Assembly (NCBI GenBank): GCA_047602425.1
Contig: JASGHG010000001.1
Coordinates: forward strand, 2,464,001-2,528,000
Direction of reading: 5' to 3'
DNA from: Nibricoccus sp.
GTDB taxonomy: Bacteria > Verrucomicrobiota > Verrucomicrobiia > Opitutales > Opitutaceae
DNA: 64,000 nucleotides
The notes under the pieces: model-generated
The model's input: the letters and a program-made list of their open reading frames with translations, nothing else
What the model was told of the DNA's origin: nothing
Databases searched by the model: none
Made by a program: the position numbers and the translations under genes
Shown here: piece after piece, positions 15,966 through 62,969 of the stretch
Layout: the number at the start of each line of letters is the position of its first letter
Numbering within the stretch: position 1 is the stretch's first letter

Positions 15966-15983
15966 AAGTAGAGCAACGATAGA

Positions 15984-29613: not shown

Positions 29614-29658
29614 CAACAGTCGAGAGTCATTTCGTGGTGAGCTTGGATCGTTTGGGCG

Positions 29659-34312: not shown

Positions 34313-34316
34313 CGGC

Positions 34317-35933: not shown

Positions 35934-35991
35934 GGGCAATGCGAAGATAGCTAGATTCCGGCCAATGTGCGACTTGGATGGATTTTTTTTC

Positions 35992-37182: not shown

Positions 37183-37221
37183 GTTTGGCGCGGTTGAATG
37201 GTTTTGGTTGGCGGACGGGAC

Positions 37222-37476: not shown

Positions 37477-37494
37477 GTTAGGTTTCGCGATAGG

Positions 37495-38406: not shown

Positions 38407-41400
38407 TTAATCGCGCTTGCGCAGGCGTTGCTTGCGGCGGGCGCCCCGTTCCATGGCATCGCTGGCGGCGCTTGCCTCGGTCTTTGACGGCTCCAATTTT
38501 TCCGCCAGAAGGCGCACGGTCGGGCTCTCGAAAAGGCCCACGATCGAAACCTGATGCTTAAGCTCCCGGCGGATGGCGGCGACTACTTGCACCGCTTTGA
38601 GCGACGTGCCGCCGGCTTCGAAGAAATTGTCGGTGGGTTTTAGGTGAGGATTGCCAATCGCGCGACGCCAGATGCTGAGCAGTTTGTCTTCAAGACTGGC
38701 AGCTGCATCGGTGCCGATTGCCGGCTCGGCGAAGCCGGACGCGTGCAGACGCGCTGTTTCCATGGCCGAACGGATCTTGGCGACCGAATCCAAAGTCGTG
38801 GCGATTTCAACGAGACGGGCTTCCGCTCCGAAGCCGCGTGTATGCGTCGCTTTGGCGGAAACTGGCCGATTAGCGATGGATTGGGATTCGGTAGTTTCGG
38901 AGCTGCCTGAGGGTTTATACCGCAGCGAAATGAGTTCCTCGGCGGAGAAACGATAAATAGTTGAGCCGGATTTTTCTTGGGCAGAAGCAGCACGGAGGGA
39001 CTCGACGAAATCCCGCGCAGGCTGGTTCTTTTCCGTAGTCTGGAAGGGAAGTTCGACAAACTCGCAACCCCGAGCGCGCGCCTCGGCGCCAACGCGGGCG
39101 AGAATCCCGTGCTCGACGCCGCGACCCAGCACTCGACAACTCAGGAGGAAGGTGTCGACCGAGCATACGTTGCCCGCGATGGAAAAAAGCGCCAAGCCGA
39201 CCATGCCATAATCGCCAAAGCGATCCTGCACGTTTACGGCGAGGCAGCCATTCGCGGGATTTTCCGAAAAACGTTCGATGTCAGCCGCTGAGCGGCGTTT
39301 GGTCGTGAAATTGAACTGGTTGGTGCGAAGCGTAAGCTGGGAAACGCGATCGAAATGTTCCGCCATTGGCTTGAAGATGGAAATCTCCAAGTGAAGTCCC
39401 TCGATGAAGTCTTTGAGGGTCGACACTTGGTCGCGGTATTTTTCGCGTTCTGCGTTTTCCCGCATTCTGTGGGTTCGGGTAAGATCCTCGGAAGTCGTCC
39501 GGAGATGGTCAAACGCCCAAGTGTGATCCAGGAACGCAGGGATTTCGGCGGGATTGGCCGGAAGCGGAAGCGTAAGGACGGCTGGCACGCTGGCCTGCAC
39601 TTCAGCGCATTCAACCGGGTTGTCGTCCACGAAAATAAAACTGTCCAAGCCCAGTCCGAGTTCCTGGGCGAGCGAACGAAGATTTTCCGACTTGGGCGAC
39701 CAGTTGATGCGCGTCGCGACGAGATGTTCCCGCCGCAGTTTCATGTCGGGATTTCGGTCAAAAACGCTCCAGACGTCCGCCTCCGAGTTTTTACTGCAAA
39801 GGCACAAAAGCATACCCGCCTCCATTTGCCGGAGCATGAACTCCTGGAGCGCTCGATGAGCGACGGTCACTTTCACTCCGAGGGCACCTTCCTCGCCGCA
39901 TGCCCCCTGCCAGAGCGTGTTGTCGCAATCCAAAACAATGACCTTGTACGGAGAGCGCTGAAGCGCGGAGATCGTTCTAACGAGGGCGGTGCCGATCGAA
40001 GCAAAACCTTCGGCGGTATAGGGAACATGGCCGGCGGCGTCCGCGTGCGGATCGTGAAGGTCCGTTACCGGATAACGTTCAGCGATTGCGGTGGAGCTGA
40101 GGGTATGGATGTTTGAAAATCCACGGACGCGGTCGATTAGTTCGGTTTCGATTTCGCGGAGGAACTGGCCGGAATCGGAGAAGCCGGAAGCCAATGGATT
40201 CGTCGGGCAAAAACACAGGATCGTGGGCGTGCTCGAAGAACGCGTGTAGGCATCCAGCGCCTGAATAAACTGATCGGCGGTTTTTTTGACCTCAGCTTTA
40301 GAAGCTGCAAAAGGTTCGGCTTCGGTGGCGCATGTCTCGTTGCGACTGGCGCGGGTTGCGTAGACGTTAAAAAGACCGGAGCCGGTCAGAAGATTCTCCT
40401 CTTCGACCGCGCAGTTAAAACCCTGGGAGATTAAAATCGACCGCACTTCATCGACCGCTTTTTGTGTCCGGTCGTGCACTTCAATCACGATCTGGCCGAT
40501 CAGCGGCCAATGGGTTTTTTCGATGCCGCGTAAAATCTCAAGTTCGCATTTTTCAGCGTCGATTTTAAGCAGGTCGATCCGGCTGAGCTTATTGTCGCGG
40601 ATAATATCCGAAACGGACAGCAGGGGGCAGTCGAACACCTGGCGGTCGAGTCGGCCGGTCATCAACTCGTCGACGTAGACATCGGTTGAAGGCTCGGACG
40701 AACCGAGCTCGGTGCGAACCATGTTGGCCACGACCGCTTGAATTGCCTGACGATCTTCGTCGGCGTTCGAGTGGAAACTCGAAAATACGGAAGATTTCTC
40801 GTAGAAAGTGAGAGAGGCTGAACCGCGTTTTTCGGAAACGCCCAGGTTGAACGGCTGGAGGCGTTCGCCGTAGGCGGAGCAATTTGCCTGAAGCGCCTTG
40901 AAGGCTACAGGGCTCGGTTCGTAGGCAAAGACGCGGGCTTGCGGCGCTCGGCTGCGCACAAAAAGCGAAAAGAGGCCGATGTTGGCCCCGATGTCCACCA
41001 CCGTGGCGTCTTCGGGTATTTGAATGCCATGACGTAAGTAGACACGGTCTTCAAAAATTTCTTTGTAAACGTACTCGGTCTCGTGCCGGTTGAGATGAGC
41101 GACTTCCAAGCCATTGGCCAGGGTATGCCGATTCAATCCAGCAAAGGCATTGGTGGTTGTGACTGGATCGAGTTTGGACGCGGCGGACTCGCTGCCAGAG
41201 GCCCAGTCGTTTAAGTTCAGCAGGATGACGTTGAAACCATTTTGGTTTCGCCGGAGCGCGCTTTCCGGACTGAGGAGTTCTTGAAAAACCTGGTTATAGG
41301 GCGCAAACGTGGTCTTTAGTGGACGTCCAAGGCGGAAGCCCCAGAACGTGAGCACCTCCTCGACCGGGTCAGCGGTGAAGGTCGCGGCGACGACAAGGTC

Positions 41401-42294
41401 GGTTTTCGATGGTTCGGCGGGTTGTTCTGACCGGGTTTGCCCCAGATAGGTGAAATGCACGCCTGAAAGTTTCAGATGGCAGCGGCCATGGTCATCGAAG
41501 ACTTCAAGATCGCCGGAGTGCAGTTCGCCGACTGCTTTTCCCGACTGGCGGAGGCGCGCTCTAACCCACACGCTACCGCTAAAAGCGAGATCGAAGATTT
41601 CCAACTTCTCCATTCCCCGGAGAATGAATGTGCTGCCGCCAGCGATCGAAAATGAGGCCAGCAGCTGCGCGACGCCATCGAGCAAGATGGGATGCAACTG
41701 GTGGATTTGACCGGGTTTGGCGATCGGCATGGCGAGTTGGCCGAGAGCTTCAGGGCCGTTTCGCCAGACTTTTTGTACGATCTGAAATTCAGGACCGTAC
41801 TGATTTCCATTTTTCGCCAACTGCTCGTAGTAGCCGGTTTGATCGGTGTGGTATTCGGATTTTTCCGTCGGCGACGGTGCAGGGCATTGGCCTGACGGGG
41901 TAGGCCAACCGGTTATTACCTCTAAACGGGCGCAGGGAGGAGGAGTTGGTGAACTCGCATCGCCGCCTTCCCGAAACGTGTAGCGAAACGAATGTTCGGT
42001 CGTGCGTTCGATACTCGCCGTGAGCAGAGTCTCGGCATCGGAGAGGATGACGGGATTGAGGAATTCGATATGCGTCAGCCTGCTGGGCATGGTGCCGAAA
42101 TGCTCGGCATGAATGCAAAGCACGGCCTCGATATAGAAAGAGCCGGGCAGAACGACCAAGTTTTGGAAACCATGATCCGTCAGATAAGGAAACGAGGCAG
42201 TTGCGATCCGGACGGTTGCCGTGGCCCCACCGGCGTCGGCCGGTTCAAATGCCACTGCTCTGCTTATGGAAGAAAATGTACCGGGTGCCTTCAA
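38407..42294 (-). CDS. Multidomain loading protein: PKS dehydratase - FkbH N-region - inserted FkbM O-methyltransferase - FkbH (HAD/glyceryl transferase) - ACP
   Basis: DH: DHGFQNLVVLPG and LHPILLD. FkbM: VVDIGANIGLFS, LLKIDAE, IEVH. FkbH: VLDCDNTLW, FVDDNP.E, TNQFN, FLLSCRVLGRGVE. ACP: FFEAGGTSL. TTG start. Confidence 0.88.
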   Translation of the reverse strand: MKAPGTFSSISRAVAFEPADAGGATATVRIATASFPYLTDHGFQNLVVLPGSFYIEAVLCIHAEHFGTMPSRLTHIEFLNPVILSDAETLLTASIERTTEHSFRYTFREGGDASSPTPPPCARLEVITGWPTPSGQCPAPSPTEKSEYHTDQTGYYEQLAKNGNQYGPEFQIVQKVWRNGPEALGQLAMPIAKPGQIHQLHPILLDGVAQLLASFSIAGGSTFILRGMEKLEIFDLAFSGSVWVRARLRQSGKAVGELHSGDLEVFDDHGRCHLKLSGVHFTYLGQTRSEQPAEPSKTDLVVAATFTADPVEEVLTFWGFRLGRPLKTTFAPYNQVFQELLSPESALRRNQNGFNVILLNLNDWASGSESAASKLDPVTTTNAFAGLNRHTLANGLEVAHLNRHETEYVYKEIFEDRVYLRHGIQIPEDATVVDIGANIGLFSLFVRSRAPQARVFAYEPSPVAFKALQANCSAYGERLQPFNLGVSEKRGSASLTFYEKSSVFSSFHSNADEDRQAIQAVVANMVRTELGSSEPSTDVYVDELMTGRLDRQVFDCPLLSVSDIIRDNKLSRIDLLKIDAEKCELEILRGIEKTHWPLIGQIVIEVHDRTQKAVDEVRSILISQGFNCAVEEENLLTGSGLFNVYATRASRNETCATEAEPFAASKAEVKKTADQFIQALDAYTRSSSTPTILCFCPTNPLASGFSDSGQFLREIETELIDRVRGFSNIHTLSSTAIAERYPVTDLHDPHADAAGHVPYTAEGFASIGTALVRTISALQRSPYKVIVLDCDNTLWQGACGEEGALGVKVTVAHRALQEFMLRQMEAGMLLCLCSKNSEADVWSVFDRNPDMKLRREHLVATRINWSPKSENLRSLAQELGLGLDSFIFVDDNPVECAEVQASVPAVLTLPLPANPAEIPAFLDHTWAFDHLRTTSEDLTRTHRMRENAEREKYRDQVSTLKDFIEGLHLEISIFKPMAEHFDRVSQLTLRTNQFNFTTKRRSAADIERFSENPANGCLAVNVQDRFGDYGMVGLALFSIAGNVCSVDTFLLSCRVLGRGVEHGILARVGAEARARGCEFVELPFQTTEKNQPARDFVESLRAASAQEKSGSTIYRFSAEELISLRYKPSGSSETTESQSIANRPVSAKATHTRGFGAEARLVEIATTLDSVAKIRSAMETARLHASGFAEPAIGTDAAASLEDKLLSIWRRAIGNPHLKPTDNFFEAGGTSLKAVQVVAAIRRELKHQVSIVGLFESPTVRLLAEKLEPSKTEASAASDAMERGARRKQRLRKRD

Positions 42295-46939: not shown

Positions 46940-48268
46940 TTATTTGGAGGTTTTTAAAAGTTCGCTCGCCACGACCGCGGTTTTGACCGGGGCCGCGCTC
47001 TTGCGATCGAGTACGAGCGGGCGATAAAATTTGCGCTGCACGAGCCTGCGCAAGGTTCCGAGCACCGAGCGAATCTTGTCGCGCATTTCTATGCGCCACC
47101 AGCAGGCGAAAAGATGGTTGTTGCGAAACCGCGTGTACGGCAGGCCCAGCAGGCGAACCGAGAAACGACGACCCCACACGGCACCTTTCTTTTTCCAGAG
47201 GCCGGATTGGGATTTCTCCACTTTCCATGCTTCGGCTGGTTTTAGTTCAACGTAACCGTCGGCAATCGCGCCTTGGAGGATTTCACGGCCGCGCTGGGTC
47301 CGGACCAAAACCAAGGAGGAGCCAGGATTAACGCCATCCGGTTGGAAATACCAAGGATCGCCGCAACTGATATCGGCAAGTTCGCCGCTACTATCCGGCC
47401 AGAGCTGCACCGACCACGGACGTGACGCCTGAAGAATCGCCCAGCTTTCGCTATAGGTGAGTTTAAACGCAGGCTCGGATTGTCCCGGCATCATCGGTGC
47501 GAAATGACCGGGCCACCCCAGACCGCGATAGCGCAGGCTGGCGATAGAGGAGGGTTCGATGCCGCGTTCTTTCAACAGATTTGTCGTTGCCTTTGTCGGC
47601 GGACTGCCGGCGCAGAAAAACGACATGGTCACGCCGATCTTTTGGTCCAATTCCGGCTTGAGCCGGCGGGCATTCGTCAAAGCGGCGATTTCAGAAGGCT
47701 GACCGATGATGGCGCATGGCGCCGAGGCTTGCTCCACCAAGTTCAGGCCGTTGCACACGGAAGCGGGAGCATACCGGGAGCCGCTGGCGGCAATGAGATC
47801 CTGGCGATTCAAACTCAATCTCGTGCGGTTCAAAAAAGGCTCTTCCGGATCCTGACCGGTGTGCAGCACTCCGGCCATTCCTGCCTTTTCAACGCAGTAC
47901 GCGGCGAGGGCAGTGAGCACGCCGCCGGAAGAACCTTTATAACGTATTTCCGGATCTGCTGCGTGCCCTTCCCAAACTTCCAGAACCTGGCCCCAGTTTT
48001 GGGTGAAATCGGTCGCCGTCGCAGGAACGTCCTTGGGCTTGTCGTTCGCCGCTGGCGCGAACGGAGTGAAGTCGGTCTGTACGCTCGGGCAAGCGTCGAG
48101 GCAAAGCGTGCAATCCTTGCAATCGCTGGTGTCAACATTGGGACGGATTCCCTCGGCGACGTAGTCCAGGAGCTGAATGCGGTTTTCCGGACAGATGTAT
48201 GCGCACACACCACAACCAATGCACAACCTCCAATCAACAACGTCGGTAAGCGTTTTTATTTTGCCCAT
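46940..48268 (-). CDS. FrhB/FdhB-like (coenzyme F420 hydrogenase beta) flavoprotein with an N-terminal 2x[4Fe-4S] ferredoxin domain
   Basis: CIGCGVC..IC and CKDCTLCL.ACP, SSGGVLT, GSRY, FCAG, YRG.GWPG, ADIS.GD.W. Paired with a pyruvyl transferase. Confidence 0.82.
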   Translation of the reverse strand: MGKIKTLTDVVDWRLCIGCGVCAYICPENRIQLLDYVAEGIRPNVDTSDCKDCTLCLDACPSVQTDFTPFAPAANDKPKDVPATATDFTQNWGQVLEVWEGHAADPEIRYKGSSGGVLTALAAYCVEKAGMAGVLHTGQDPEEPFLNRTRLSLNRQDLIAASGSRYAPASVCNGLNLVEQASAPCAIIGQPSEIAALTNARRLKPELDQKIGVTMSFFCAGSPPTKATTNLLKERGIEPSSIASLRYRGLGWPGHFAPMMPGQSEPAFKLTYSESWAILQASRPWSVQLWPDSSGELADISCGDPWYFQPDGVNPGSSLVLVRTQRGREILQGAIADGYVELKPAEAWKVEKSQSGLWKKKGAVWGRRFSVRLLGLPYTRFRNNHLFACWWRIEMRDKIRSVLGTLRRLVQRKFYRPLVLDRKSAAPVKTAVVASELLKTSK

Positions 48269-48349
48269 TGAATATATGATGGTCGATGAATAATGCCGGC
48301 AGGTCGGCCCCGGATTATATAGAAATTATATGGTTTTGGCCGGATCCGT

Positions 48350-49627
48350 TTATGAAGAGGAAACCAAACGTTGGAATATATCTGCGAGTTTTCGGCGCGC
48401 GTCCTTGGAGGCTTCCGCGAGGCCGGCACGGGCCGCGGCGCGCAAACGATAAAGTTCGACGGCACGCGTCACCGCCGAAGCGTTGTCGCTGCTTCGACCA
48501 TCGATGACCCAGTCCTGCATTCCGACACTTTCGAAAACCCCCGCGAACTTCATGCTGTACGCGACTCCGATGCAAGGAACGCCCTGCGAGAGCGCGGCGA
48601 TGCAAGCATGCATGCGTGAGCCGATGAAAAAATCGCAGCGCCCGATGATGCCCTTGATCGCATATTGATCGTACTCGCGGTCGACGATCCTGATTCGCTG
48701 CCGCAATGCGGCGGGTACTGCGTCGCGCAATTTCCGCGATGCTTCCTGATCGCTTTCCACGTCGCCCGCCGGAGCGAAGGTATGCGGAACCAGCCAGAGT
48801 TCTCCGGGATGCTCGTTCAACAACCGTGTCACCAATTCGGGAAGAAACTCCGCGTAGCTCAGCTTGAGTCCGAACATATTATTGCGTGTGTAACCGCCGT
48901 TATACATCAGGCCGTTGACATTCAGGCCAATCACGCCCGCCGGAACGCTGCCGGCGAGGGGAGGATCGAGAGCAATTTCGGACGTCGGAACGGCTTCAAG
49001 CGAAAAGGCCACGTCTGGACTGAGCAGAACTTCTTTCCCGGGGCCCACGAGATTTTGCGCGACGACGCGGCTTTGTTTGTCGCGCGCAATCACCACAGAG
49101 GACCGCCTGAGCAGATAGCGCGCGAGCCCGCGCGCGACCGCGCTTTTGAACGGGCCGTAGGTTTGCGGAAACTGCACCATCGTGCCTTTGACCAACAAAA
49201 CCGACCAGTCCAAAAGGAAGGTATAAATAAATCCTTTTAACCCATAGATATCGCTAAAACTATCGCCGCCGTGGACGTTGCCGACTAGTTTGGCATCGAC
49301 AATCGTTTTGATCCACGGCGTGGAGCGGGCAATGGCGGCCCGGACGGCTTTTAGGGGAGCCAGTCGATAGAGCATCGACATCCCAAGGATCCAGAAAAGG
49401 TGATCGCGCGGCCGGGCTCGGGGGGACATGCGGACATTGACGACTTCAATCGGCGTTTCCTTGCCGCCTACACGAAAAGTCGCCGGCCGGTTGTCCTGGT
49501 TGCCCAAGAGCAGGGCAATATGGCACCCCGGAGCCGCTTCGGCGCAGAGGTTGACCAGGGAAGCGCCCAGCGCCAGAACGCCGCGGTTTCCGGATGAAAC
49601 CGGCGTGCCTAGAATTCCGATCTTCAT
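48350..49627 (-). CDS. Polysaccharide pyruvyl transferase family protein (WcaK-like)
   Basis: GN.GV.AL, GGDSFSDIYG, PQTYGPF, ARD..S, PDVAF, GSRMHACIAA...GVP...AYS.KF. Confidence 0.88.
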   Translation of the reverse strand: MKIGILGTPVSSGNRGVLALGASLVNLCAEAAPGCHIALLLGNQDNRPATFRVGGKETPIEVVNVRMSPRARPRDHLFWILGMSMLYRLAPLKAVRAAIARSTPWIKTIVDAKLVGNVHGGDSFSDIYGLKGFIYTFLLDWSVLLVKGTMVQFPQTYGPFKSAVARGLARYLLRRSSVVIARDKQSRVVAQNLVGPGKEVLLSPDVAFSLEAVPTSEIALDPPLAGSVPAGVIGLNVNGLMYNGGYTRNNMFGLKLSYAEFLPELVTRLLNEHPGELWLVPHTFAPAGDVESDQEASRKLRDAVPAALRQRIRIVDREYDQYAIKGIIGRCDFFIGSRMHACIAALSQGVPCIGVAYSMKFAGVFESVGMQDWVIDGRSSDNASAVTRAVELYRLRAAARAGLAEASKDARRKLADIFQRLVSSS

Positions 49628-49673: not shown

Positions 49674-50351
49674 TCAATGTTTCCAAAATATTCCTTCCTT
49701 GATCACTCGTATGTTGGGGCTTCCGCCGATGACCGCGTGGGACACGTCGACGCGCCCGGCCACGGTGGTTCCGGCCGCCACGACCACACCCTCTTTTATT
49801 TTGGATCCTTTTAATATAAGCGTCCGGCAGCAGAGCCAGACGTTGTCGCCGATAATAATTGGTTTTGGCGGATTCAAAACGGTTCCCTGCGCATCACAAA
49901 TATCGTGCCAGTCCTGGTCGAAAACCGAGACATCCCAGGAAATCAAAACGTTTCGCCCGAAGGAAATCTTTGTTTTCGCGTAGATCATGCTGAAACCGGT
50001 GACCGCGAAATTGTTTCCAACGAATAGTTCGCCATGCGCGGCGATCTGGCAGCCTGGCCCAATGTCGGCGGTTCCTTCAAAAATGACCTTACCGGTTATG
50101 ATCAATATGGACTTCGATTTGGCATTGTGAAAAAGCGGGCCGTCTCCCATTCCGATTTTCACGATGCCCGTCCTGATCCGCTGCAATTCCACCGTGCCGG
50201 AGAGTTCCTTTAGCTGCACGCGATGGGAGACAAAAACCGGGAGTTTCAGCGCGGTGCGGAAAGGAAAATAGCGCAGGTTGAAATGAACGGTGTTCGGGAT
50301 CGAAAGGAGGAAATCCCATTTCCTCAAAATACTCCGAAGGGCATTTTTCAT
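49674..50351 (-). CDS. Left-handed beta-helix acyltransferase
   Basis: D.DWH followed by IIIGDNVWL...ILKGSKI...VVAAG..V hexapeptide repeats. Confidence 0.82.
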   Translation of the reverse strand: MKNALRSILRKWDFLLSIPNTVHFNLRYFPFRTALKLPVFVSHRVQLKELSGTVELQRIRTGIVKIGMGDGPLFHNAKSKSILIITGKVIFEGTADIGPGCQIAAHGELFVGNNFAVTGFSMIYAKTKISFGRNVLISWDVSVFDQDWHDICDAQGTVLNPPKPIIIGDNVWLCCRTLILKGSKIKEGVVVAAGTTVAGRVDVSHAVIGGSPNIRVIKEGIFWKH

Positions 50352-50447: not shown

Positions 50448-53400
50448 TTAGCGAATCTTGTCTCCTTCCAGCGGTTGCGCAAACTGGTCCTTCACATTGT
50501 TGAGATTTTCCAACGAGGCGTTCCACCATTTCGATGCCAGCAAGGTTTCGATCGTCTTCGGGTTGAAGCGGTATCGCAGGACCTTGGCCGGGTAACCACC
50601 GACAATGGCATAGGGAGGCACATCTTCCACAATAACGCTCCCGGCGGCGATGAAAGCTCCGTCCCCGATCTTTTTTGTAGGATAGAGGATGGTTGCGTTA
50701 TTTCCGATAAACACGTCGTTGCCAATTTCCACTTTCACCCGGTTGAGTTCGTAGCCTTTGGCGAAGCCGAAGGCGGGATGGTAGAAAATCGCGTTGGTCG
50801 AGATGGTGTTTCTGGGGTGGTCGGCATTTTGGATGAACGCCGTGGGAGACACCGATGAATATCTGCCGATCGTCGTCTTCTCGCGCATCCGGTCAACGTC
50901 GAAGCATCCGCAAGTGTAATCGCCAATCTGGATGCCGAACATTTTGGCGTAAAGCTTCCGCAAGGTTACCGTGTAGTATTCGCCATTCTCGAATTTGAGG
51001 ATCAATTTTTGGGCGAACGCGCGAACGCGGCGGCTTCCGTTCATGAACAGCGGGGCCAGGACCCATCGGCAGAACGCGGACTCTTTCATCCGGGAGCCGG
51101 CTGTCGGCCCTGTTTGCGATGTAGTTGTTTTTTGGAGACCGAGCAGCGTTGCGACAATTTCCGGATTGGCCTCGGGCAGGTTTAGGCTCGGAGCTGGGCT
51201 TGGTGCCGCGGGCTTGTCGATGACATGCGCGGATTGGCCGGACGTCGACGGCAGTAGAGTCGCGAGGCCTGCCACCGTTCGATGCCGGAAAAGCGCCACG
51301 GGCGGAAGATCGGTTCCGAAGCGATCGTTGAGGAGCGAAACGGCCCGCAATACCAGCAACGAGTGACCGCCCAAATCGAAGAAATCGTCGTGAATGCTGA
51401 TGCGTTCAACACCCAATACTTCCCTCCAAACCTGACAGACACCTTGTTCGGTTTCGTTTCTTGGGGCGACATAGGTGGTTCCGAGGTCCGGACGGTCCTG
51501 CACGGGCTTCGGAAGGGCCTTGCGGTCGACTTTTCCATTGGTAGTCAGAGGAATTTTTTCGAGCTGCACGAAGGCGGCCGGCACCATGTACTCCGGCATT
51601 TTTTTCTTCAGGTGTTCCCGAAGCTCCAGAACCGAGGGGATCACGCCGCCTGACGAAATGACGTACGCAACCAATCGCTGGTCGCCGGGAACATCTTCGC
51701 GCGCGATGACGACCGCTTCGCGAATCGCAGGATGCTGACAGAGAACGGACTCAATTTCACCCAGTTCGACGCGGAAGCCGCGGATTTTTACCTGTTGATC
51801 GATACGGCCGAGATACTCGATGTCGCGGCCGGGAAGGAAGCGAGCGAGATCGCCCGTTCGATAAAGTCGCGAACCGGGTTTGTTCGTGAGATGATCGGGA
51901 ATGAATCGGGCGTCGGTGAGGTCCTGCCGATTGAGGTAACCGCGCGCAAGGCCGGCACCGCCGACGTACATTTCTCCCGGAACACCGATGGGCAACGGCT
52001 GTTTTTGCGGATCGAGGATATATACTTGAAGATCCGGAATCGGCACGCCGATCACACTGCCAGAGGTCAAATCGTCTTTCGACAACGGCCTGTACGTGAC
52101 ATGCACCGTCGTTTCGGTGATGCCATACATATTGACCAAACGCGGCTGGCTGTCGCCATGCCGGTCGTACCACGGGCGCAAACTTTGCATTTCCAAAGCC
52201 TCTCCCCCGAAAACCACATAACGCAGCGCCAGTTTCTTCTGCCCGACCGATTCCTCCGCATGGATGAGCTGGCGGAATGCCGATGGCGTTTGGTTCAGGA
52301 CGGTCACCTGTTCCTTGGCGAGGAGTTCGTAGAATGCCTCGGAGGAGCGGCTGACCATGAATGGCACCACAACAAGGCGGCCGCCGTAGAGCAAGGCGCC
52401 CCAGATTTCCCAAACGGAGAAATCGAAAGCCACGGAGTGGAACAGCGTCCATACGTCCGAACTATTGAACCCGTACCAATGATCGGTGGCGGAGAAGAGC
52501 CGCGTCACGTTCCGGTGGGTGAGCAGGGAACCCTTGGGTTTTCCCGTCGTGCCCGAGGTGTAAATAACGTAGGCAAGATGATCCGGATTTGTCGCGGACG
52601 GCTGGTTTTCGTTGTCGGCGTCGGTCAGTTTTTCCTGGAGCAGCTGGTCTACGCAGAGCACACGGGCGGATGTTTCGGGAAGATCCTTGAGCAGGGACGA
52701 CTGCGTGAGCAGAATGGGAGCCTTGGCATCGGAAAGCATGAACGCCAGTCGATCGGCCGGGTAGGCAAGATCGATCGGCAGGTAGGCGCCTCCCGCTTTC
52801 AAGATGGCGAGCAGGCCGATCACGAGGTTGTTGCACCGTTCAAGACACAGACCGACGAGGACATCGGGGCCGACGCCCAGTGAACGCAACTCGCGGGCGA
52901 GTCGGTTGGCCATGGCGTTGAGTTGGCGGTAGCTAAGGGTTTGGTCATCGCAGGTCAGCGCGGGCGCGTCCGGGCTCCGGCGGGCCTGCTCCTCAAAAAG
53001 GACATGGATGCAACGGTCGCTGGGATAGTCTTTTGGTGCTTCGTTCCAGTCGACCACGAGCTGCTTCCGTTCCGCGGCGGTGACGAGCGGTAGGACACCC
53101 AATTGTTTTTCCGGTCCGGCGAGCATTCCGGCGAAAATGATTTCGAGGTGCCCAAGCATTCTGCCGATGGTTCCTTCGTCATACAGACCGCCATTGTATT
53201 CGAGGCGCAGCAGCAGTTGGTTTTCGCCATAAGCCTGGAGGACGAGCGGTATGCCGACCTGTTCCTTTAGTTCTATCTGGAGTTTAGGTCCATTCGGATT
53301 CAGTTGCTGGACCGCGGTATCAAGCTGTGCATGATCGAACATCAACAGGGTGTCGAACAGCGCCTTCCGGTCTTGAATTTCGCTCCATTGCTGGATCTTG

Positions 53401-54413
53401 ACCAAAGGCGTGTGCTCGTGCTTTCGAAGTTCGAATTCGCGCGCGCGCAGGTCTTTCAACCAGGATTTTAAGGTGGCGCTGGACGAAACATTAACACGAA
53501 GCGGGAGCGTGTTTATAAAAATGCCGACAATGGAATCGGCATCGGTCACGGTGGACCGCCGGCAGGCCCGGGTGATTCCGAAAACGACGTCTTCTTCGCC
53601 ACTATAGCGGCTGATGAGCAAGGCCCAGGCCGCTTGTACGAGCGTGCCGAGGGTGACCCCTTGGGCTGCGGCAAAGGCCTTCAGTTCGGTCGTCAACGAT
53701 TCTGACAGGCGCGTCTCGCTCGCGGCTGGAATAAACTCGTTACTGGCTGCTGCCGGACGCAGCGTGCGCAGATCGGTGGGGACGGAGAATCCTTTTAGTT
53801 CCGCCCGCCAGAATCCTTCCGAGGCCTGCCAGTCATGGCGTCCAACCCATTCAATATATTCACGGAATGGGCGCGGAGCAGGCAGTTGAATATTTTCGTT
53901 CCGGAGCCCGGCTTTATAAAGCGTGAATACTTCATTCAGAATAATGGGGTAGGCACGTCCATCCAAAATAATATGATGAAAACTCCATATACATTTGTAA
54001 CGGTTTTCACCAAGTCGCGCGAGGGTCACTCGCATTACGGGCGCTTGGGAAAGATCGAAGCCCTGTTTGCGGTCGGTGCGGAGAAATTGTTCCAGTTCTT
54101 TGGTCTGCGCCTCTGGCGCCAGATGAATCCAGTTACGTTCGACGAAAGGCAGCGTCACTGTGGGGTGAACATCCTGGGCTGGTTCAGCCAGCTTCAGCCA
54201 ACGAAACGCTGTGCGTAAAGCTCCATGACGGACGACTACTTTTTCCCACGCCGCTTTGAAGGCCGCTGTGTTTACGGCTTCATCGATGGTTATAACGACC
54301 TGCTCAATGTTTATTCCTGAGTTGGGGCGGGACACGGTGTCAAAGAGCATGCCTTGCTGCATTGACGAAAGAGCGTAGGATTCCGCAATCGAAGTCGTGG
54401 GCGTGGATGTCAT
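50448..54413 (-). CDS. Monomodular NRPS C-A(Thr)-T fused to a C-terminal Vat/CatB-like LbH acyltransferase domain
   Basis: C motif HHIILDG with a DCL/starter-like N-terminus (YALSSMQQGMLF). A code DFWNVGMVHK (Thr-type). T site GGHSL. C-terminus IGNDVFIG...IGDGAFIAAGSVI..DVPPYAIVGG.PAK.LRYRF....LL..KWWN. Confidence 0.92.
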   Translation of the reverse strand: MTSTPTTSIAESYALSSMQQGMLFDTVSRPNSGINIEQVVITIDEAVNTAAFKAAWEKVVVRHGALRTAFRWLKLAEPAQDVHPTVTLPFVERNWIHLAPEAQTKELEQFLRTDRKQGFDLSQAPVMRVTLARLGENRYKCIWSFHHIILDGRAYPIILNEVFTLYKAGLRNENIQLPAPRPFREYIEWVGRHDWQASEGFWRAELKGFSVPTDLRTLRPAAASNEFIPAASETRLSESLTTELKAFAAAQGVTLGTLVQAAWALLISRYSGEEDVVFGITRACRRSTVTDADSIVGIFINTLPLRVNVSSSATLKSWLKDLRAREFELRKHEHTPLVKIQQWSEIQDRKALFDTLLMFDHAQLDTAVQQLNPNGPKLQIELKEQVGIPLVLQAYGENQLLLRLEYNGGLYDEGTIGRMLGHLEIIFAGMLAGPEKQLGVLPLVTAAERKQLVVDWNEAPKDYPSDRCIHVLFEEQARRSPDAPALTCDDQTLSYRQLNAMANRLARELRSLGVGPDVLVGLCLERCNNLVIGLLAILKAGGAYLPIDLAYPADRLAFMLSDAKAPILLTQSSLLKDLPETSARVLCVDQLLQEKLTDADNENQPSATNPDHLAYVIYTSGTTGKPKGSLLTHRNVTRLFSATDHWYGFNSSDVWTLFHSVAFDFSVWEIWGALLYGGRLVVVPFMVSRSSEAFYELLAKEQVTVLNQTPSAFRQLIHAEESVGQKKLALRYVVFGGEALEMQSLRPWYDRHGDSQPRLVNMYGITETTVHVTYRPLSKDDLTSGSVIGVPIPDLQVYILDPQKQPLPIGVPGEMYVGGAGLARGYLNRQDLTDARFIPDHLTNKPGSRLYRTGDLARFLPGRDIEYLGRIDQQVKIRGFRVELGEIESVLCQHPAIREAVVIAREDVPGDQRLVAYVISSGGVIPSVLELREHLKKKMPEYMVPAAFVQLEKIPLTTNGKVDRKALPKPVQDRPDLGTTYVAPRNETEQGVCQVWREVLGVERISIHDDFFDLGGHSLLVLRAVSLLNDRFGTDLPPVALFRHRTVAGLATLLPSTSGQSAHVIDKPAAPSPAPSLNLPEANPEIVATLLGLQKTTTSQTGPTAGSRMKESAFCRWVLAPLFMNGSRRVRAFAQKLILKFENGEYYTVTLRKLYAKMFGIQIGDYTCGCFDVDRMREKTTIGRYSSVSPTAFIQNADHPRNTISTNAIFYHPAFGFAKGYELNRVKVEIGNDVFIGNNATILYPTKKIGDGAFIAAGSVIVEDVPPYAIVGGYPAKVLRYRFNPKTIETLLASKWWNASLENLNNVKDQFAQPLEGDKIR

Positions 54414-54609: not shown

Positions 54610-56061
54610 TTATAGAGCTGCCGTCTTGGTTGCTAGGCGAGGCATAATGGCATTATAAATAACTTGGGCAACTTCAGGAAATATTATCCGTGCGATGCCC
54701 ACCGCGATGCCGAGTGAAGCGAGTGCGCTGACGGCGGCGCCCACGATGCCCAGGCTGGATGCAAAATAATGGGCATAACCAACGTTCAAGACTAAAATTC
54801 CCACCAGGTAAACGGTGGCGACGGAACTTTCGCGCAGGGGCACTTGTTGCTTTTGGCGGAGTCGATACAAGGAATACACTGTGGCCAAAATCTCGCCCAC
54901 AATGGCGCAAGCTGCGATTTGAGTGGGAGTCCCTTTGAGCGCGACGACGGCCAAGGCGATTGGCAGTCCGGCTGCTCGCCACAAGTTCGAATAAAATTGG
55001 TTGATCGTATCGGCACGCGCCGCGGCCGCGTTGCCCGAGGCCAGACGCAGGAAGCGGAAAGCCATCGCCGAGCCCAAAATCGCGACGAACGCCCCGGTGC
55101 CCACGTATTTTCCGCCGAAGATCAACGTGACGAGTTGTTCACCCGCGACAATCATCGGCACAAGAAATAGGCCCGCGCAGACCGCGGCAATTTGTATACA
55201 CAAACGATATTGATGTTTCAACCGCTCCAAGTCGTCTTGCAGTCTCGATAAGAGCGGCAGCATCAAAGAGCCGCTCACCTGGGAAAAGATAAACCACGGA
55301 ATACTAATCATCGAAAACGCCAGGCCGTAGCTGGCAAGCAAGTCGAGCGAGAAGACCGAACCTATAATAATCTGATCGGCTTGTTGTGAGCCGAATGTTA
55401 TAAAGCCGGTCAGCAGGAGGGGCCACCCGAACGCCAGCATACTTTTAATGTAATCGCGCTGCCAGGCCCACACATAGGGTCGGGTTGCGCAAAGAAAGGT
55501 GATGATCGTGCCGGTGGCGGCCTTCGTGAGCATGAGAATTACAATCACACGAAAATCTCCCAACCAGTGCGCCAAGGGCCAGGCGGCCGCCGTAATCAAC
55601 AATTGGGGAACGACGTCGGATAAGATCAACGGCAGATATTCGAGATGACGCTGACGCCGCGACACATCCATGTGGCCCAATCCTTGGCACATGGGCACCG
55701 AGGCCAGAAGGGCAAACGCCCACCAAGTGCCGGGCACTCCGAGAAATTTTGCGATGGGATAACTCAAGGCCACGAGCATCAATGCACTGCACGAGCCACC
55801 GATAAATTGGAGCGCCTGCGCGGTGCCGAGAAACGCCGGTTCTTCACCTTTCTTGGACTGCACGACTTGCAGCCCAAAACACATATTCCCGCTTAACTCG
55901 AGGAGGGTGATGGCCATGCTAAATGCCGCTGCCAAACCGAAGTCCGCTTTGCCCAAGGTTCTGGCTAAAATCACATTGCGCACGAACGAGAGAAAATATC
56001 CTGCAATTCGCCCGGTGAGCAGAATCATTGTGCCTTGGAGCAGTGAGTTCGATTTGCGCAT
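54610..56061 (-). CDS. wzx: Wzx-type oligosaccharide flippase
   Basis: Many TM segments, with ILARTL...DFG, FGWPL, DQIIIG and P.LSRLQDD motifs typical of PST flippases. Confidence 0.85.
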   Translation of the reverse strand: MRKSNSLLQGTMILLTGRIAGYFLSFVRNVILARTLGKADFGLAAAFSMAITLLELSGNMCFGLQVVQSKKGEEPAFLGTAQALQFIGGSCSALMLVALSYPIAKFLGVPGTWWAFALLASVPMCQGLGHMDVSRRQRHLEYLPLILSDVVPQLLITAAAWPLAHWLGDFRVIVILMLTKAATGTIITFLCATRPYVWAWQRDYIKSMLAFGWPLLLTGFITFGSQQADQIIIGSVFSLDLLASYGLAFSMISIPWFIFSQVSGSLMLPLLSRLQDDLERLKHQYRLCIQIAAVCAGLFLVPMIVAGEQLVTLIFGGKYVGTGAFVAILGSAMAFRFLRLASGNAAAARADTINQFYSNLWRAAGLPIALAVVALKGTPTQIAACAIVGEILATVYSLYRLRQKQQVPLRESSVATVYLVGILVLNVGYAHYFASSLGIVGAAVSALASLGIAVGIARIIFPEVAQVIYNAIMPRLATKTAAL

Positions 56062-58047: not shown

Positions 58048-59022
58048 CTAAACAAATTTCTGTAAATACGGGATCTTTTGGATCACAGCCACGGCGAGAA
58101 AAGACACGACGGTCGTCAATGCGAACCAGACCAGATCATGTTGATGTATCCAAGGGATCAATTTGAAGGCAGCCATCACCACGCCGTGAATGAGATAAAC
58201 GCCCAAGCACAGGGTGCTAATTGGGCCGATTTGAGGGGAAAGCTGGCGTTTGAACAACAGCCCGACCACGACAAGCGCGCTTCCGACTCCGTACGAAATT
58301 CCCATGCCGGGATCGATGTGATGAAGGTAGGCGCAGGTGATTATTATCGTCGCTTCGATGGCGATCAAAACGCGGTTGGATTGCGCACCCAGAGTCACCG
58401 CGGAGGCCATGGCCAAACCAATCGGAAGGCTGGGCGCGGCCTGTAACCACTGGGCCCAAGGCGCTTCATAGAAGCCCGACGTGCGGATGAAAGCCGCTGC
58501 GAAAAGCGTGAGATGCGCGACGATAACCGGAACGGCAACCCGTGTGTACGGCGGCAGTTTGTCGTGCGGCTTGCTCAGAACGTAGGTGACGCAGGCGCTC
58601 GCAAACGAAAAGGGTAGATACCATAATCCAATCCACGGTCCGGCTAGAATGTTATCGATAAAGCCGGATGTTAGCGGAAACAAACGTTTACCCGTCACTA
58701 TATTGAGCACGGCGTAGATAACAAACCACGCGGCCCAAGGCATCAGCAGGCGCGAAACTCTTTTCTGAAAAAACGCCTTCGGATTAAGGCCCTGAGTGGA
58801 TCCTTTTTGAAAGAAAACGAATATAATCAGGAAAAATACAAGGCCCGCATAGGCAACTCGTCGTTGCGGAAGGACGCCGAGATGAAACCAAATGACTGCG
58901 CAGGCCGAAATGATCCGAAGCAGATCGATGGTATCGTTTCGTTCCTTCACGCGTGCTGGTTTATCGTGCGTGGCAACCGACATGGCGGCGGTCGAGAAAA
59001 GATGAGGCTGGGAGGTCGACAT
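58048..59022 (-). CDS. Acyltransferase family 3 (OafA-like membrane O-acyltransferase)
   Basis: R...ID.LR......VIWFH, FF.KR..RL..P, LWYL and GVYLIH motifs; multiple TM segments. Confidence 0.82.
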   Translation of the reverse strand: MSTSQPHLFSTAAMSVATHDKPARVKERNDTIDLLRIISACAVIWFHLGVLPQRRVAYAGLVFFLIIFVFFQKGSTQGLNPKAFFQKRVSRLLMPWAAWFVIYAVLNIVTGKRLFPLTSGFIDNILAGPWIGLWYLPFSFASACVTYVLSKPHDKLPPYTRVAVPVIVAHLTLFAAAFIRTSGFYEAPWAQWLQAAPSLPIGLAMASAVTLGAQSNRVLIAIEATIIITCAYLHHIDPGMGISYGVGSALVVVGLLFKRQLSPQIGPISTLCLGVYLIHGVVMAAFKLIPWIHQHDLVWFALTTVVSFLAVAVIQKIPYLQKFV

Positions 59023-59042
59023 CAGGGACGTTTTAGTCGCGC

Positions 59043-60434
59043 TTAGGCCGAACCGGCTTTTGTGATTTCAGGATTTTGGTCCTGTGCGTCAGGTTGCTTC
59101 CCATCCGGACCGTCGCTTTGCGGGGAGGCAAGCTCCGTGACTGCGGAGTCGGCTTCAACATCCGCGTCTTCCGATTCAACGAGCGTGGCCGGGGCCATTT
59201 TGGCCGACGAGTAAAGCGAGCCGATCATCGCGAGGTTCGAAAACAAAAACACGAACGACTGGTCAAAATAATAGACCGACATGCAGGAACAGGCTTGGGC
59301 GAAGAGCGCTGCACCGAGCGTCCAGATGTGGAATTGTTCCGAAAGCGGCGCATTTTCGTCCAAGCGTATGGTTTTCCCCACGTAGTTGAATGCCGTTCCC
59401 AAGGCGAAAATGAAAAGGAGCATCAAGGGGAAACCGCCAAAAACACCGTAACCAATATATTGGTTCGTTATGTCGCAATGATCCTCGCTCCACGATACGC
59501 CATATGGCATCCAGTGCCGGGTGTACGCAGTTCCCGCGAACCACCATTCACTAAAATGGTTGATGGCCGCCTGGATCAGGGCGGCCCGGTGATATCCCGT
59601 GCTGCTTCCGGTAAGATCGATCCGGGCGATCAAATAATAGGCGGGCGCCTGCATGCACACGTCTAAAACAATATAGAACACCACCGCCGCGATCCGCATC
59701 TGGCGGGTAAACGCGCGCCATTTCCAAAGCATCAAACCGAACAATCCGAAAACCACGCTCATCAGCGGGCCGCTGGATCTGCTCGCCAGCACCATCAGCA
59801 GACAGGCGACAATGCCGACCTTGGCCGCCAGGCGTTGCGTTTTCCAAATGCCCACCATCAAGGGCAGAACCGCGGCGCCCACCGTTCCGGCGAGGATTGA
59901 ATGGGAAAATGGACCCTGTGCGCGGATACTGCCTTCACGGACGGAGGCCATTTCGGGAACGTCGCCGAAAATGGCGAACATGTTGCGACCGGTTAATTTT
60001 TCACCGACCATTTCAAGGGCAACCGGGAGAAGCACGAAGGCGGTGATCTTCGAATAAAAAATGATATCGTCGATATTCTGACAGAAGATGCGGATCAGAA
60101 AATATATCCCCAAGGTATTGTAGACGGTGCCAAGCTGGCTGGTGAGGGGCTGGACAAAAATACTGCTGAACAGACACCAAAAAGCCCAAGCCAGCATGAA
60201 CCAATCCAAGCCATTGAACCCGCCCGCAGGACGTTCGTTGCGAATGATGACACGAGCGAAACCAAATAAAAGGAGCAAACGGATGATAGGGAAATGAAGC
60301 GGGCCGACCTCGATTCCTTGTCCCAAGGTCATGTAGCAGGCGCCCGCAAGCAACGGCAGCGGAGCCCAGCGCCGCGGTACCGACAAAAGCGCTGCGGCGT
60401 TGATCAAAAGAAAAATGAAAGCGAAACCATTCAT
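59043..60434 (-). CDS. wzy: Wzy/O-antigen ligase-family polysaccharide polymerase
   Basis: Multi-TM protein with RAQGPF.H.ILAG, SRSSGP, ST.YHR..L and DITNQY motifs. Start at ATG 60434, or TTG 60476. Confidence 0.72.
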   Translation of the reverse strand: MNGFAFIFLLINAAALLSVPRRWAPLPLLAGACYMTLGQGIEVGPLHFPIIRLLLLFGFARVIIRNERPAGGFNGLDWFMLAWAFWCLFSSIFVQPLTSQLGTVYNTLGIYFLIRIFCQNIDDIIFYSKITAFVLLPVALEMVGEKLTGRNMFAIFGDVPEMASVREGSIRAQGPFSHSILAGTVGAAVLPLMVGIWKTQRLAAKVGIVACLLMVLASRSSGPLMSVVFGLFGLMLWKWRAFTRQMRIAAVVFYIVLDVCMQAPAYYLIARIDLTGSSTGYHRAALIQAAINHFSEWWFAGTAYTRHWMPYGVSWSEDHCDITNQYIGYGVFGGFPLMLLFIFALGTAFNYVGKTIRLDENAPLSEQFHIWTLGAALFAQACSCMSVYYFDQSFVFLFSNLAMIGSLYSSAKMAPATLVESEDADVEADSAVTELASPQSDGPDGKQPDAQDQNPEITKAGSA

Positions 60435-60537
60435 TCCAGCGTGGCTCCACGGCAGATTTGCAGGGAGCTTGGGCAATACGATATCACATTTGCGCGAACC
60501 GACGACTGGTAAACGAAGATCGTTGTGCCGGCCGGAA

Positions 60538-61731
60538 TCATTGTTTTTGGCTCCCGTTTTCCTGCTTCAAGACGGTCACGGCTGTGTCCGCCAAATAGCT
60601 GATGTGGCGATCGTCCAGTCCTTGATGAACAGGCAGTGTGAGGAGTTGTTGTTTCAGCCGGCAGGCATCGGGAAACGACGACCAATCGATGCCATTGCGA
60701 TGGAACCCCGCCCACCAAGGATAGGCCGCGATACCTCTTGCTTGCAGCGCTTCCACGCTGGCGTCGCGGTTGGCTACGGTGAGTGGAAACGACAGCGGAC
60801 AAACGCTATCCGGCAAAGTTCGATAAACGGGCGTCATTCCTTCAATTCCGGAAAAGGCCTTGCTTAGTTGAAGAAAATTGGAGCGGCGCCGGCGGACGAT
60901 TTCCTGCGGCGAGAACGAACTGGCCAAGGCAAAGGTCGCGGGTTGTATCGCGCGGTCGGCATGGATTCCCGGATCGAAGTAGTAGGACTCGGGCATTTCA
61001 GGCCGAGCGGTTTCGGGCTCCTGTCCATTTCGGCCATTGCGTCGATTTAGGCTCGAAAGAAGCGATCCATACAAACCGAACCATTCTAAAGAATCGAGAA
61101 TTGCCGTCTTTGTGGAAGATTTGATCTCGGTTAACAGGCTGGAAAGCCCTGCCGGGGTCAGACGAGGATTGCGATCGACGCGGGTTCTTGGAAGTGAGAG
61201 CAGACCGCCGTGCGCGAAGCCCAGGGTTTTGGGCAGGCTGTAAATTGCGGCGTCGCCCATCCGTCCGATCCTGTTCGATTCGCCATTGCTGAAGAGTGCG
61301 AGGGCGCAGTCCTCGATGAGAAGCAACCCCTGTTCGTCGCACCAACGTCGCAGGTCGGACATCGGCTGTTCCCAACCAAAATAGTGAATGATATATACAG
61401 CGCGAGTGTTGGGAGTTTTTCGAGATATGAGATCGGCAAAATCGATCCGGCAGTCGGCTGAGACGGAATAGCCCTTGAGTTTTGCGCCAGCATGGACAAG
61501 GGCGTCGAGTTCGGTTCCGCAATTGTAGGCCGGCACCAATATTTCCGAACCAGGTGGCAGGCCTAGTAGTTTGCAGGCGAGGGCGATGGCTGAACGCCCG
61601 CTGTAGGTGCCAATCAAATAGCGGTCGCGAAACTGATCGTGTTGCAGAACAGCGTGACGGGACGGTTGGAGTGCACGAAACCAGTGGTGCAGACTGACTG
61701 ACGGAGCGCCGCAATGAAGTGCGTTTTTCAC
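60538..61731 (-). CDS. DegT/DnrJ/EryC1/StrS PLP-dependent aminotransferase
   Basis: SGR.AI, ILVPAY.C, IHYFG, IEDCA.AL, YSL.K PLP lysine, LTLPVHQ. The GTG at 61731 overlaps the GNAT stop (GTGA). Confidence 0.85.
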   Translation of the reverse strand: MKNALHCGAPSVSLHHWFRALQPSRHAVLQHDQFRDRYLIGTYSGRSAIALACKLLGLPPGSEILVPAYNCGTELDALVHAGAKLKGYSVSADCRIDFADLISRKTPNTRAVYIIHYFGWEQPMSDLRRWCDEQGLLLIEDCALALFSNGESNRIGRMGDAAIYSLPKTLGFAHGGLLSLPRTRVDRNPRLTPAGLSSLLTEIKSSTKTAILDSLEWFGLYGSLLSSLNRRNGRNGQEPETARPEMPESYYFDPGIHADRAIQPATFALASSFSPQEIVRRRRSNFLQLSKAFSGIEGMTPVYRTLPDSVCPLSFPLTVANRDASVEALQARGIAAYPWWAGFHRNGIDWSSFPDACRLKQQLLTLPVHQGLDDRHISYLADTAVTVLKQENGSQKQ

Positions 61732-62969
61732 AGCGTGTGTCGGATCCAGAAGGACCACAGCGTGTGCTGCAGCGCAGGAATTTTGGGCGCGAGGCGAACG
61801 AAGAGCACTTTGTAGTAGGCGAAGTCGAGAAACGAGGAAAACGCCTTGTAGAGGCGAACCCGCGCGCGTACTCCGAAGCCGCGCCGAATAAACTGCACCG
61901 TACGCAACGGCCACTCATGGGCTCCATGGTGAACTTTATATCCGTAATGACCACGGCCTCCCTCGATCGTGTTGAGACCTTCTCCAATCGCGGCCTCGAT
62001 CATTTTCACCAAGCCCATCGTGCCCAAACTGAAACGATCCCACTCGGCGTTTCGCACACGCGCCGGCAACCGCCAATAGACAGTGCGCCCATGCACGAAA
62101 CAATATTGGGAGGAAATAACCTTCTCGTCAGCGAGGATGCGATAAAAGCGGACTTTACCCTGACTGCCGAAGGCTCGAATGAGTTCCCGGTTGAATTCGT
62201 GGGCGTGTGGCCAATCGCCGAAGTGGCCGAGTTTTCCGTCTGCACGCCACTGGTGTTCGTGCTCGCGGCAAAAATTCTCGAATTCGGTGGCGATCGTTTC
62301 CGGCGCGCCGACCGAGTCGAAGCTGACGCGGTGCGCTTTCGCGCTTTGCTCGATCATCCGCTTGAAATTGCTCCGCTGTTTCTTGTCCAAATTTTTGAGA
62401 TAATCGGCGAAATTATCCGGGAGCGCGAAAATGCTGTTGCAGGTGTCGCCCACAGCTTCCGTTTCGCCGACCAAGGTTGGATTTTGGAGGCCGGCCGCCT
62501 GCAAATCTTCTATGTGGGCGCCCGAGCCCGCGAGCGGGCCGAAGAGAAGAACGTCGCAGCGTTGCTTGCCAACGAAGTATTGCACGCTCTGGCTGGCCAC
62601 CGCTTTGACGAAATCCGGTAGCACGGGTAGATTGCAAAGAGTTAGGCTATAGTCCGCGCCGACCAATTTGGCGGCGCGAATCCAGACTGGCCCCAGCCAA
62701 AGCGTTTCGATAAAAGCGGGGACGATGCCGACCAAGTCTTCACCGGCATAGAAAAACAGAAGATGGAGGGAACGCTTGGTTCCGTAATATTTCCACCAAA
62801 TACTGCACCACTCAAAGGTTTGATACACGTCCGCGCCGGAGCGGGCGACGAGATCGTTCCACGCGGTGCGGTGCGGTTCTGCCTCGGAGAAGGAGTGCAG
62901 AAGTCGTACGGAAAGCTGTTTTTCCGGGGAAAGCAGGTGGGTGGTCTCGGTGGAATCCATGGATTTCAT
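61728..62969 (-). CDS. GNAT N-acyltransferase (CelD/BcsL, FemAB-like two-domain type)
   Basis: W..L......YQT.EW...W, LVGI.P, LP..F.DYL..L.KK.R, SLG, G.G...YK motifs. The ATG at 62969 overlaps the GT2 stop (ATGA). Confidence 0.8.
   Translation of the reverse strand: MKSMDSTETTHLLSPEKQLSVRLLHSFSEAEPHRTAWNDLVARSGADVYQTFEWCSIWWKYYGTKRSLHLLFFYAGEDLVGIVPAFIETLWLGPVWIRAAKLVGADYSLTLCNLPVLPDFVKAVASQSVQYFVGKQRCDVLLFGPLAGSGAHIEDLQAAGLQNPTLVGETEAVGDTCNSIFALPDNFADYLKNLDKKQRSNFKRMIEQSAKAHRVSFDSVGAPETIATEFENFCREHEHQWRADGKLGHFGDWPHAHEFNRELIRAFGSQGKVRFYRILADEKVISSQYCFVHGRTVYWRLPARVRNAEWDRFSLGTMGLVKMIEAAIGEGLNTIEGGRGHYGYKVHHGAHEWPLRTVQFIRRGFGVRARVRLYKAFSSFLDFAYYKVLFVRLAPKIPALQHTLWSFWIRHTL

Follow-up and report, generated by a model that had tools for sequence, protein, structure and literature searches.

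A candidate left-handed beta-helix release domain at the end of NRPS and PKS proteins in bacterial polysaccharide clusters

The fate of what nonribosomal peptide synthetases (NRPS) and polyketide synthases (PKS) make is set by release domains, of which few kinds are known. Left-handed beta-helix (LbH) acyltransferases are familiar from other pathways. LpxA and LpxD are trimeric LbH enzymes that move an acyl group from a carrier thioester onto a nucleotide sugar, while AntD, QdtC, WlbB and VioB are LbH N-acyltransferases of nucleoside diphosphate (NDP)-amino sugars destined for surface glycans, and their donors are coenzyme A (CoA) thioesters. On the NRPS side, the precedent is Pls/PosA, whose terminal domain discharges the residue bound to the thiolation (T) domain and is predicted to consist of three left-handed beta-helices on six transmembrane helices (text of PMC10522769). 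In this work, we examine an NRPS gene (50448..54413, minus strand) in a 64,000-nucleotide stretch of Nibricoccus sp. DNA, hereafter the window, whose product ends in an LbH domain of the xenobiotic acyltransferase (XAT) class. From its sequence, its family and its surroundings, we consider with a probability of about 0.6 that this domain is a trimeric off-loading domain, which would take the acyl or peptidyl chain from the carrier and transfer it to a precursor of the polysaccharide.

The reading frame of the gene is open across 1321 residues, with zero internal stops, and Pfam matches cover Condensation (residues 11-453), AMP-binding (473-827), AMP-binding_C (886-961), PP-binding (991-1054) and Hexapep (1228-1261). 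All parts lie on the minus strand. The condensation (C) domain (53055..54383, residues 11-453) has an intact HHIILDG motif. The adenylation (A) domain (51531..52997, residues 473-961) has the code DFWNVGMVHK, which is of the Thr type; here and throughout, substrates are assigned to A codes from general knowledge. The T domain (51252..51443, residues 991-1054) carries the phosphopantetheine (Ppant) serine, Ser1018, in a GGHS motif. This canonical C-A-T module with intact motifs is followed by a linker (51090..51251), modelled as a low-confidence stretch and a predicted helix at about residues 1084-1097, and then by the LbH domain (50448..51089, residues 1109-1321), which is recognised by both sequence and fold. 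No Pfam match to a thioesterase (TE), a reductase or a terminal C domain was found after the T domain. The sequence-only reading of this DNA had already described the C-A-T-linker-LbH order, the Thr code and a PAK..RYRF..KWW tail, and all of these were reproduced by the open reading frame (ORF), Pfam, code and motif analyses. The position that it gave to the gene, between wzx (54610..56061) and a second LbH gene (49674..50351), was also confirmed.

The LbH domain matches VatA, ApmA, VatD and CatB in sequence at E values from 4e-23 to 3e-16. It shows the hexapeptide LbH and the C-terminal helical domain of the XAT class: three N-terminal helices are followed by the beta-helix, by His1199 and by the helical domain, with its PAKVLRYRF..KWW tail. 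The modelled fold also matches the XATs (Foldseek E 1e-11; in VIA, Z 17.6 and root-mean-square deviation 3.2, with 161 aligned to ApmA). The domain shares with VatA/VatD, CatB and ApmA the fold, the catalytic His, the helical WW tail and, if its three-copy model holds, the trimer. It differs from them by an identity of about 30%, three extra N-terminal helices, the fusion to a carrier and altered residues in the CoA site, and we see no sign of a resistance role. The NCBIfam cut-offs of these families lie well above its scores (Vat 89.5 of 300 bits, CatB 84.3 of 350, ApmA 81.2 of 550). The window LbH is therefore XAT-like in fold and is not a member of the Vat, CatB or ApmA family.

The resemblance to Pls/PosA is one of organisation: an NRPS-like protein with a carrier and then a terminal LbH domain, whose packing is predicted to be as in the sugar-nucleotide acyltransferases. 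In Pls, A-T is followed by about 730 residues that hold six transmembrane helices and three LbH repeats in each chain, and the product is a homopolymer. The window protein, in contrast, starts with a C domain (11-453) and has a single XAT-type LbH of 213 residues, which is too short for six transmembrane helices and would have to trimerise between chains; the fused LbH domains follow C-A-T or PKS modules within polysaccharide clusters. The genome has 4 matches to TIGR02353, none over the cut-off, and the window protein is not among them. Pls/PosA is a precedent for an NRPS that terminates in an LbH, but the window protein is not a member of that group. With LpxA and LpxD the proposed likeness is a carrier-bound donor, which the fusion and the structure model suggest for the fused LbH, and the window LbH has weak sequence similarity to an LpxA (E 1.3e-5). 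LpxA and LpxD, however, are separate from any assembly line and take their acyl group in trans from free fatty-acyl acyl carrier protein (ACP). AntD, QdtC, WlbB and VioB differ in being stand-alone and outside the XAT class, and the DegT aminotransferase was not found in three genomes with fused LbH. Among solved structures, no chain with a carrier and an LbH together appeared in 50 rows of structure comparison. A supposed NRPS in the flagellin glycan locus of Clostridioides difficile type B was dropped as a comparison, as a term search of the main text of PMC5207246 gave no hits.

The search for other C-A-T-Hexapep proteins revealed that the fusion recurs. Once 9 near-duplicate cluster members had been removed, 82 distinct proteins were found with an LbH 67-175 residues (median 88) downstream of a Ppant motif, and every one of the 82 terminates at the last residue of the LbH. 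With the LbH part as query, PP-binding was present in 30 of 30 matches of 726-2312 residues (query counted); it was also present in 61 of 62 matches of 374-2000 residues at E<=1e-30, and in 31 of the top 33 matches of an index-free search, the other two being proteins of 292 and 183 residues. We built a quick midpoint-rooted tree of 121 rows: 56 T-fused proteins, 10 long proteins lacking the Ppant motif and 55 short relatives. All 56 fused rows fall inside one clade of 66 rows, with a support of 95 in the Shimodaira-Hasegawa-like approximate likelihood ratio test (SH-aLRT), computed without bootstrap. Among the 10 rows of this clade that lack the motif, P0032, P0037 and P0039 begin within a T domain, and most of the 10 are on short contigs.

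The modules ahead of the LbH vary. The codes of 61 terminal A domains are of the Gly type in 36 proteins, Thr in 8, Val in 5, DPR in 5, Ala in 3, MGYH in 3 and Leu in 1, and no Ser-type code is among them. The LbH also ends PKS proteins (P0021, P0028, P0169 and a KS-AT-ACP-LbH protein in genome G720) and caps a PKS-aminotransferase-NRPS hybrid (P0167); it follows a C-T unit devoid of A in P0014, and A-T units devoid of C in, for example, P0154, P0158 and P0165. The constant partner of the LbH is the carrier, which, as far as sequence can tell, fits with recognition of a Ppant thioester. Named carriers are Microbulbifer aggregans, M. agarilyticus, M. bruguierae and a Ketobacter sp. The family is rare and patchily distributed: no second match came from samples of 300 genomes from the same family as the window or 400 from its phylum, 1 of 401 genomes matched in the order of genome G301 and 3 of 28 in its family, and the matches in two other phyla (1 of 401 and 2 of 401 genomes) are all stand-alone sisters. 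In a search with the family alignment, fused members made up none of the 79 genome loci listed and 3 of the 80 metagenome loci listed (L080-L082), the listings being taken up by generic XATs, and a plasmid search gave one match, a generic CatB-like protein. In the literature covered, mainly open-access texts, we found no account of this architecture. The fused family is recurrent and apparently undescribed, and the function we give it is a deduction.

A few related arrangements are worth recording. In P0015, on one contig, a family 2 glycosyltransferase (GT2) is fused ahead of a partial C-A-T-LbH module. P0268 (907 residues) is a different carrier fusion, with an N-terminal XAT-like LbH followed by an ACP and FkbH. 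Clusters of 314-334 residues in the ESM Atlas have PP-binding and Hexapep in all members, with scores of 0.85-0.87; they are possible free ACP-LbH didomains and are given as leads only, as no match there reached 0.9.

Could the fusion of two genes be an artefact of assembly? The PKS of the same window is frameshifted, which makes indel errors conceivable in this assembly. Nevertheless, the fusion is found in 81 other proteins from several sources, one of which, an independent homologue of 1323 residues, has an identical architecture and an LbH with 88% identity. Because of this homologue, and of the carriers found in 61 of the 62 long matches, misassembly does not explain the fusion, and we regard an artefact as having a negligible chance of being correct. 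The in-frame ATG at 51089, which had been proposed as the start of an ancestral free-standing gene, encodes Met1109. All 56 of the fused homologues retain this residue, but the position is a gap in 73 of 103 stand-alone sisters, and no consistent Shine-Dalgarno motif could be seen by eye upstream of it in 10 loci. Given this gap in most sisters and this lack of a consistent motif, a structural role for Met1109 appears as likely as a relic of an ancestral start.

His1199 is conserved in all 56 fused rows and aligns with the Vat histidine (VatA His87, ApmA His135), which acts as the catalytic base (text of PMC7885111). In CatB, acetyl-CoA is contacted by Ser139, Thr144 and Lys162, and Lys145 lies within the same site (text of PMC8096840); we carried these positions over to the window protein by alignment with CatB and ApmA. 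The position of Lys145 (1263) is basic in 1 of 56 fused proteins vs 84 of 103 stand-alone sisters, and position 1277 in 28 of 56 vs 100 of 103. Position 1274 is Tyr in 46 of 56 fused proteins, while it is Asn in 85 of 103 sisters, and Trp1235 is present in 24 of 56 vs 91 of 103. CatB Thr144/Lys145 correspond to Val/Glu in the window protein and to Leu/Glu in ApmA. The same divide is seen inside a single cluster, that of G720, where the two stand-alone copies have retained Thr-Arg/Lys and Asn-Pro-Ala-Lys, unlike the two fused ones. These changes fit a relaxed binding of the nucleotide end of CoA, but they are suggestive only, since ApmA shares the Glu and the window protein keeps Lys1277. For the first of these reasons, we do not speak of a loss of CoA binding.

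In the model of three LbH copies, the His loop lies within the interface. The model scores 0.76 vs 0.04 for the best control, with contacts agreeing at 92% or more and a predicted local distance difference test (pLDDT) of at least 87, although its resemblance to solved trimers of XATs may be what lets it pass, and the calibration, in which 20 of 30 solved pairs and 1 of 23 single chains came up to the mark, does not extend to three copies. The model of T, linker and LbH has a predicted template modelling score (pTM) of 0.70, above the ceiling of 0.65 (227 of 348 residues) that LbH and linker helix could give alone. The T domain is thus placed with some confidence, and this excess hints that it is docked on the LbH.

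The genomic context of the family is that of surface polysaccharides. Three related genomes, G570, G719 and G720, which have two fused copies each, were taken as one, which leaves five independent contexts, and wzx is near the fused gene in 4 of these 5. In G720, one LbH-ended line is A-T-C-A(Gly)-T-LbH and the other is C-A(Ser)-T plus KS-AT-ACP-LbH, and both are set among genes for an exosortase, a priming glycosyltransferase, wzy, wzx, a pyruvyl transferase, FrhB, AsnB and AT3. The window and G720 share homologues of wzx, the pyruvyl transferase, FrhB, AsnB and GT2, at 34-38% identity. On the cluster contigs of the three genomes lie none of their 17 TE matches. In L080 and L081 wzx adjoins the fused gene (the L081 wzx has 23% identity to that of the window), and on the 4.3-kb L082 the AT3 gene alone is seen beside it. 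Some features of these loci recur. The pair of pyruvyl transferase and FrhB-like genes is found in the window (46940-49627) and in L174 (1210-3756). Directly upstream of the A-T-C-A-T-LbH gene lies a CheR-like methyltransferase in both L080 (3481-4524) and L174 (18991-19998), and the first A domain of these two genes has an odd code lacking the usual Asp (MGYHIGGTIK and MGYHTGGTIK, respectively).

The off-loading mechanism that we propose would run as follows. The A domain would load Thr on the T domain, and the C domain would add an acyl unit supplied by a different carrier encoded in the cluster, for which the FkbH-ACP protein and the PKS described below are candidates. Three LbH copies would assemble as an XAT-type trimer, and the Ppant arm of T would enter the site where CoA would otherwise bind. 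His1199 would then activate a sugar hydroxyl, or an amine where one is available, on an NDP-sugar or a lipid-linked repeat unit, which would be acylated in the cytoplasm ahead of its flipping by Wzx. The product would be a polysaccharide, or a surface-protein glycan, with an N-acyl-threonyl group. As the acceptor, the sequence-only reading had favoured an NDP-amino sugar made with the DegT enzyme. This possibility stands for the window genome, which has two DegT-type genes and where N-acylation is possible, but it does not extend to the family: PF01041 matched in none of the three genomes with two fused copies, of which the completeness is not given, while the control was positive in 12 of 14. 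Because most XATs are O-acyltransferases and these three carriers showed no DegT match, O-acylation is the better general guess, and we favour a sugar hydroxyl as the usual acceptor. The off-loading from T that had been proposed for this one protein is supported in a broader form, with an LbH family that serves as terminus for NRPS and PKS modules encoded in polysaccharide clusters. A more general formulation, to which we would give even odds, is that these lines never yield a free metabolite and that a swappable, trimer-forming LbH puts their peptide or polyketide chains from the carrier onto Wzx/Wzy precursors.

Several observations weigh against off-loading by the LbH. The evidence base is five independent contexts, L082 with its AT3 gene alone among them, and the tree, devoid of bootstrap, samples 55 of 212 short relatives. 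P0034 and P0036, on short contigs, have the conserved Met as their very first residue and may be stand-alone proteins. ApmA, an acetyl-CoA user, likewise has Glu at position 1263, Lys1277 is retained in the window protein, and at the CatB Lys162 position 55 of 56 fused proteins have a basic residue. The other NRPS of the window cluster has its own TE, so that the C-A-T-LbH module may not be the last step, and with the frameshift near 33513 in its PKS the pathway may be partly non-functional in this genome. The retained lysine of CatB would also be expected if the LbH were an ordinary polysaccharide O-acetyltransferase using acetyl-CoA, fused to the NRPS for co-expression or co-location, with the chain being passed to another module or enzyme; in the window, the TE-ended NRPS and the AT3 acyltransferase could accept it. 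Stand-alone sisters (33-49% identity) occupy the same kind of glycan cluster, so the context by itself is compatible with ordinary acetylation as well as with off-loading. We nonetheless find this unlikely: the fusion is held across the whole clade, in every case with a carrier as the domain directly before the LbH, the Thr-Lys/Arg pair of the CoA site is altered in fused copies only, and G720 has two fused and two stand-alone copies with no TE on that contig.

A release domain with a non-glycan acceptor, such as a small diffusible alcohol or amine, a lipid, water or, as in Pls-type polymerisation, a second chain, seems about equally improbable. Hybrid PKS/NRPS genes of this kind usually make free metabolites. 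XATs act on small molecules (text of PMC7885111) and the terminal LbH domain of Pls/PosA is required for polymerisation (text of PMC10522769), but wzx is near the fused gene in most contexts, the window and G720 share their set of glycan genes, and the single LbH copy and the lack of a TIGR02353 match argue against a Pls-type reaction. Even less credible is the alternative, raised in the sequence-only reading, that the LbH acetylates the T-tethered residue in cis, on the Thr hydroxyl or a free amine, from acetyl-CoA. A hydroxyl is indeed available on Thr, the A-T-LbH forms would carry a free amine, and ApmA shows that the fold is capable of N-acetylation. However, 53 of the 61 terminal A codes are not of the Thr type and none is of the Ser type, the amine is already acylated in C-A-T modules, and PKS ACPs also carry the LbH; the modules ahead being so varied, acetylating a tethered Thr is not its general job. 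The assembly line would also still lack a release step.

If off-loading by the LbH is correct, it would represent an undescribed class of release domain, one that would force a megasynthase to be trimeric, and would offer a genetically encoded way to substitute bacterial glycans with amino-acid and polyketide groups. By joining to sugars chains that end in Gly, Thr, Val, Ala or a polyketide unit, the LbH would connect the assembly lines of secondary metabolism with the synthesis of cell-surface glycans. Annotation of such clusters as antibiotic clusters, and of the LbH as a Vat/CatB resistance gene, would then be mistaken; the labels that family members bear in databases include "linear gramicidin synthase subunit D".

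The window cluster combines wzx, wzy, glycosyltransferases, a pyruvyl transferase with its FrhB-like partner, an exosortase, AsnB and PKS/NRPS genes, and the window regions described below, down to the exosortase group at 9149..16973, are on the minus strand. The Wzx flippase (54610..56061) matches Polysacc_synt_3. On the other side of the NRPS gene lie the stand-alone LbH acetyltransferase, with weak Maa/WbbJ/WcaF-like matches (49674..50351), and the polysaccharide pyruvyl transferase and FrhB-like Fe-S protein (46940..49627), both with homologues in the G720 cluster. The region 58048..61914 encodes an AT3 acyltransferase, a Wzy-like polymerase and a DegT-like aminotransferase, a partial match with a pyridoxal phosphate-type SLPK motif. 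Just outside the window are Wzz/Wzc-like genes, a priming glycosyltransferase and genes that we take to be WbpB/D/E-like.

The candidate acyl donor for the C domain, a protein with dehydratase (DH), FkbM, FkbH and ACP domains, lies at 38407..42294; DH-FkbM-FkbH-ACP in one chain is an architecture for loading a glycerate-derived starter, here within a polysaccharide cluster. Next to it (34317..38361) are a Ser-code A domain, an acyl-CoA dehydrogenase, a small ACP-like ORF (37222-37476, called by motif, with no Pfam match at 1e-7) and a 3-hydroxyacyl-CoA dehydrogenase, a set that presumably resembles the aminomalonyl-ACP pathway. The PKS (29659..34375) is made of ketosynthase (KS), acyltransferase (AT), ketoreductase and ACP domains, and the frameshift near 33513 splits its KS, through sequencing error or decay. 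The second NRPS (22237..29616) is C-A(Ser code)-T-C-A(Gly code)-T-TE; by eye, its TE reads GYCLG, with Cys at the place of the usual Ser nucleophile, and may be a transacylating one.

Further along, an exosortase (XrtC-like, below the cut-off), an AsnB-type amidotransferase, an AMP-forming ligase and a NadE-like gene (9149..16973) belong to PEP-CTERM glycan tailoring, and by eye a secreted protein (1483-2181) has a VPDxG-type PEP-CTERM signal at its end, near the exosortase. In the window (11433-17643), AsnB, the AMP-forming ligase, a small ACP-like ORF, the NadE-like gene and an LbH are grouped. A comparable group of ligase, AsnB and NadE-like genes is found in L180 of genome G925 (1-5853), together with a stand-alone sister of the fused LbH, and could be an in-trans version.

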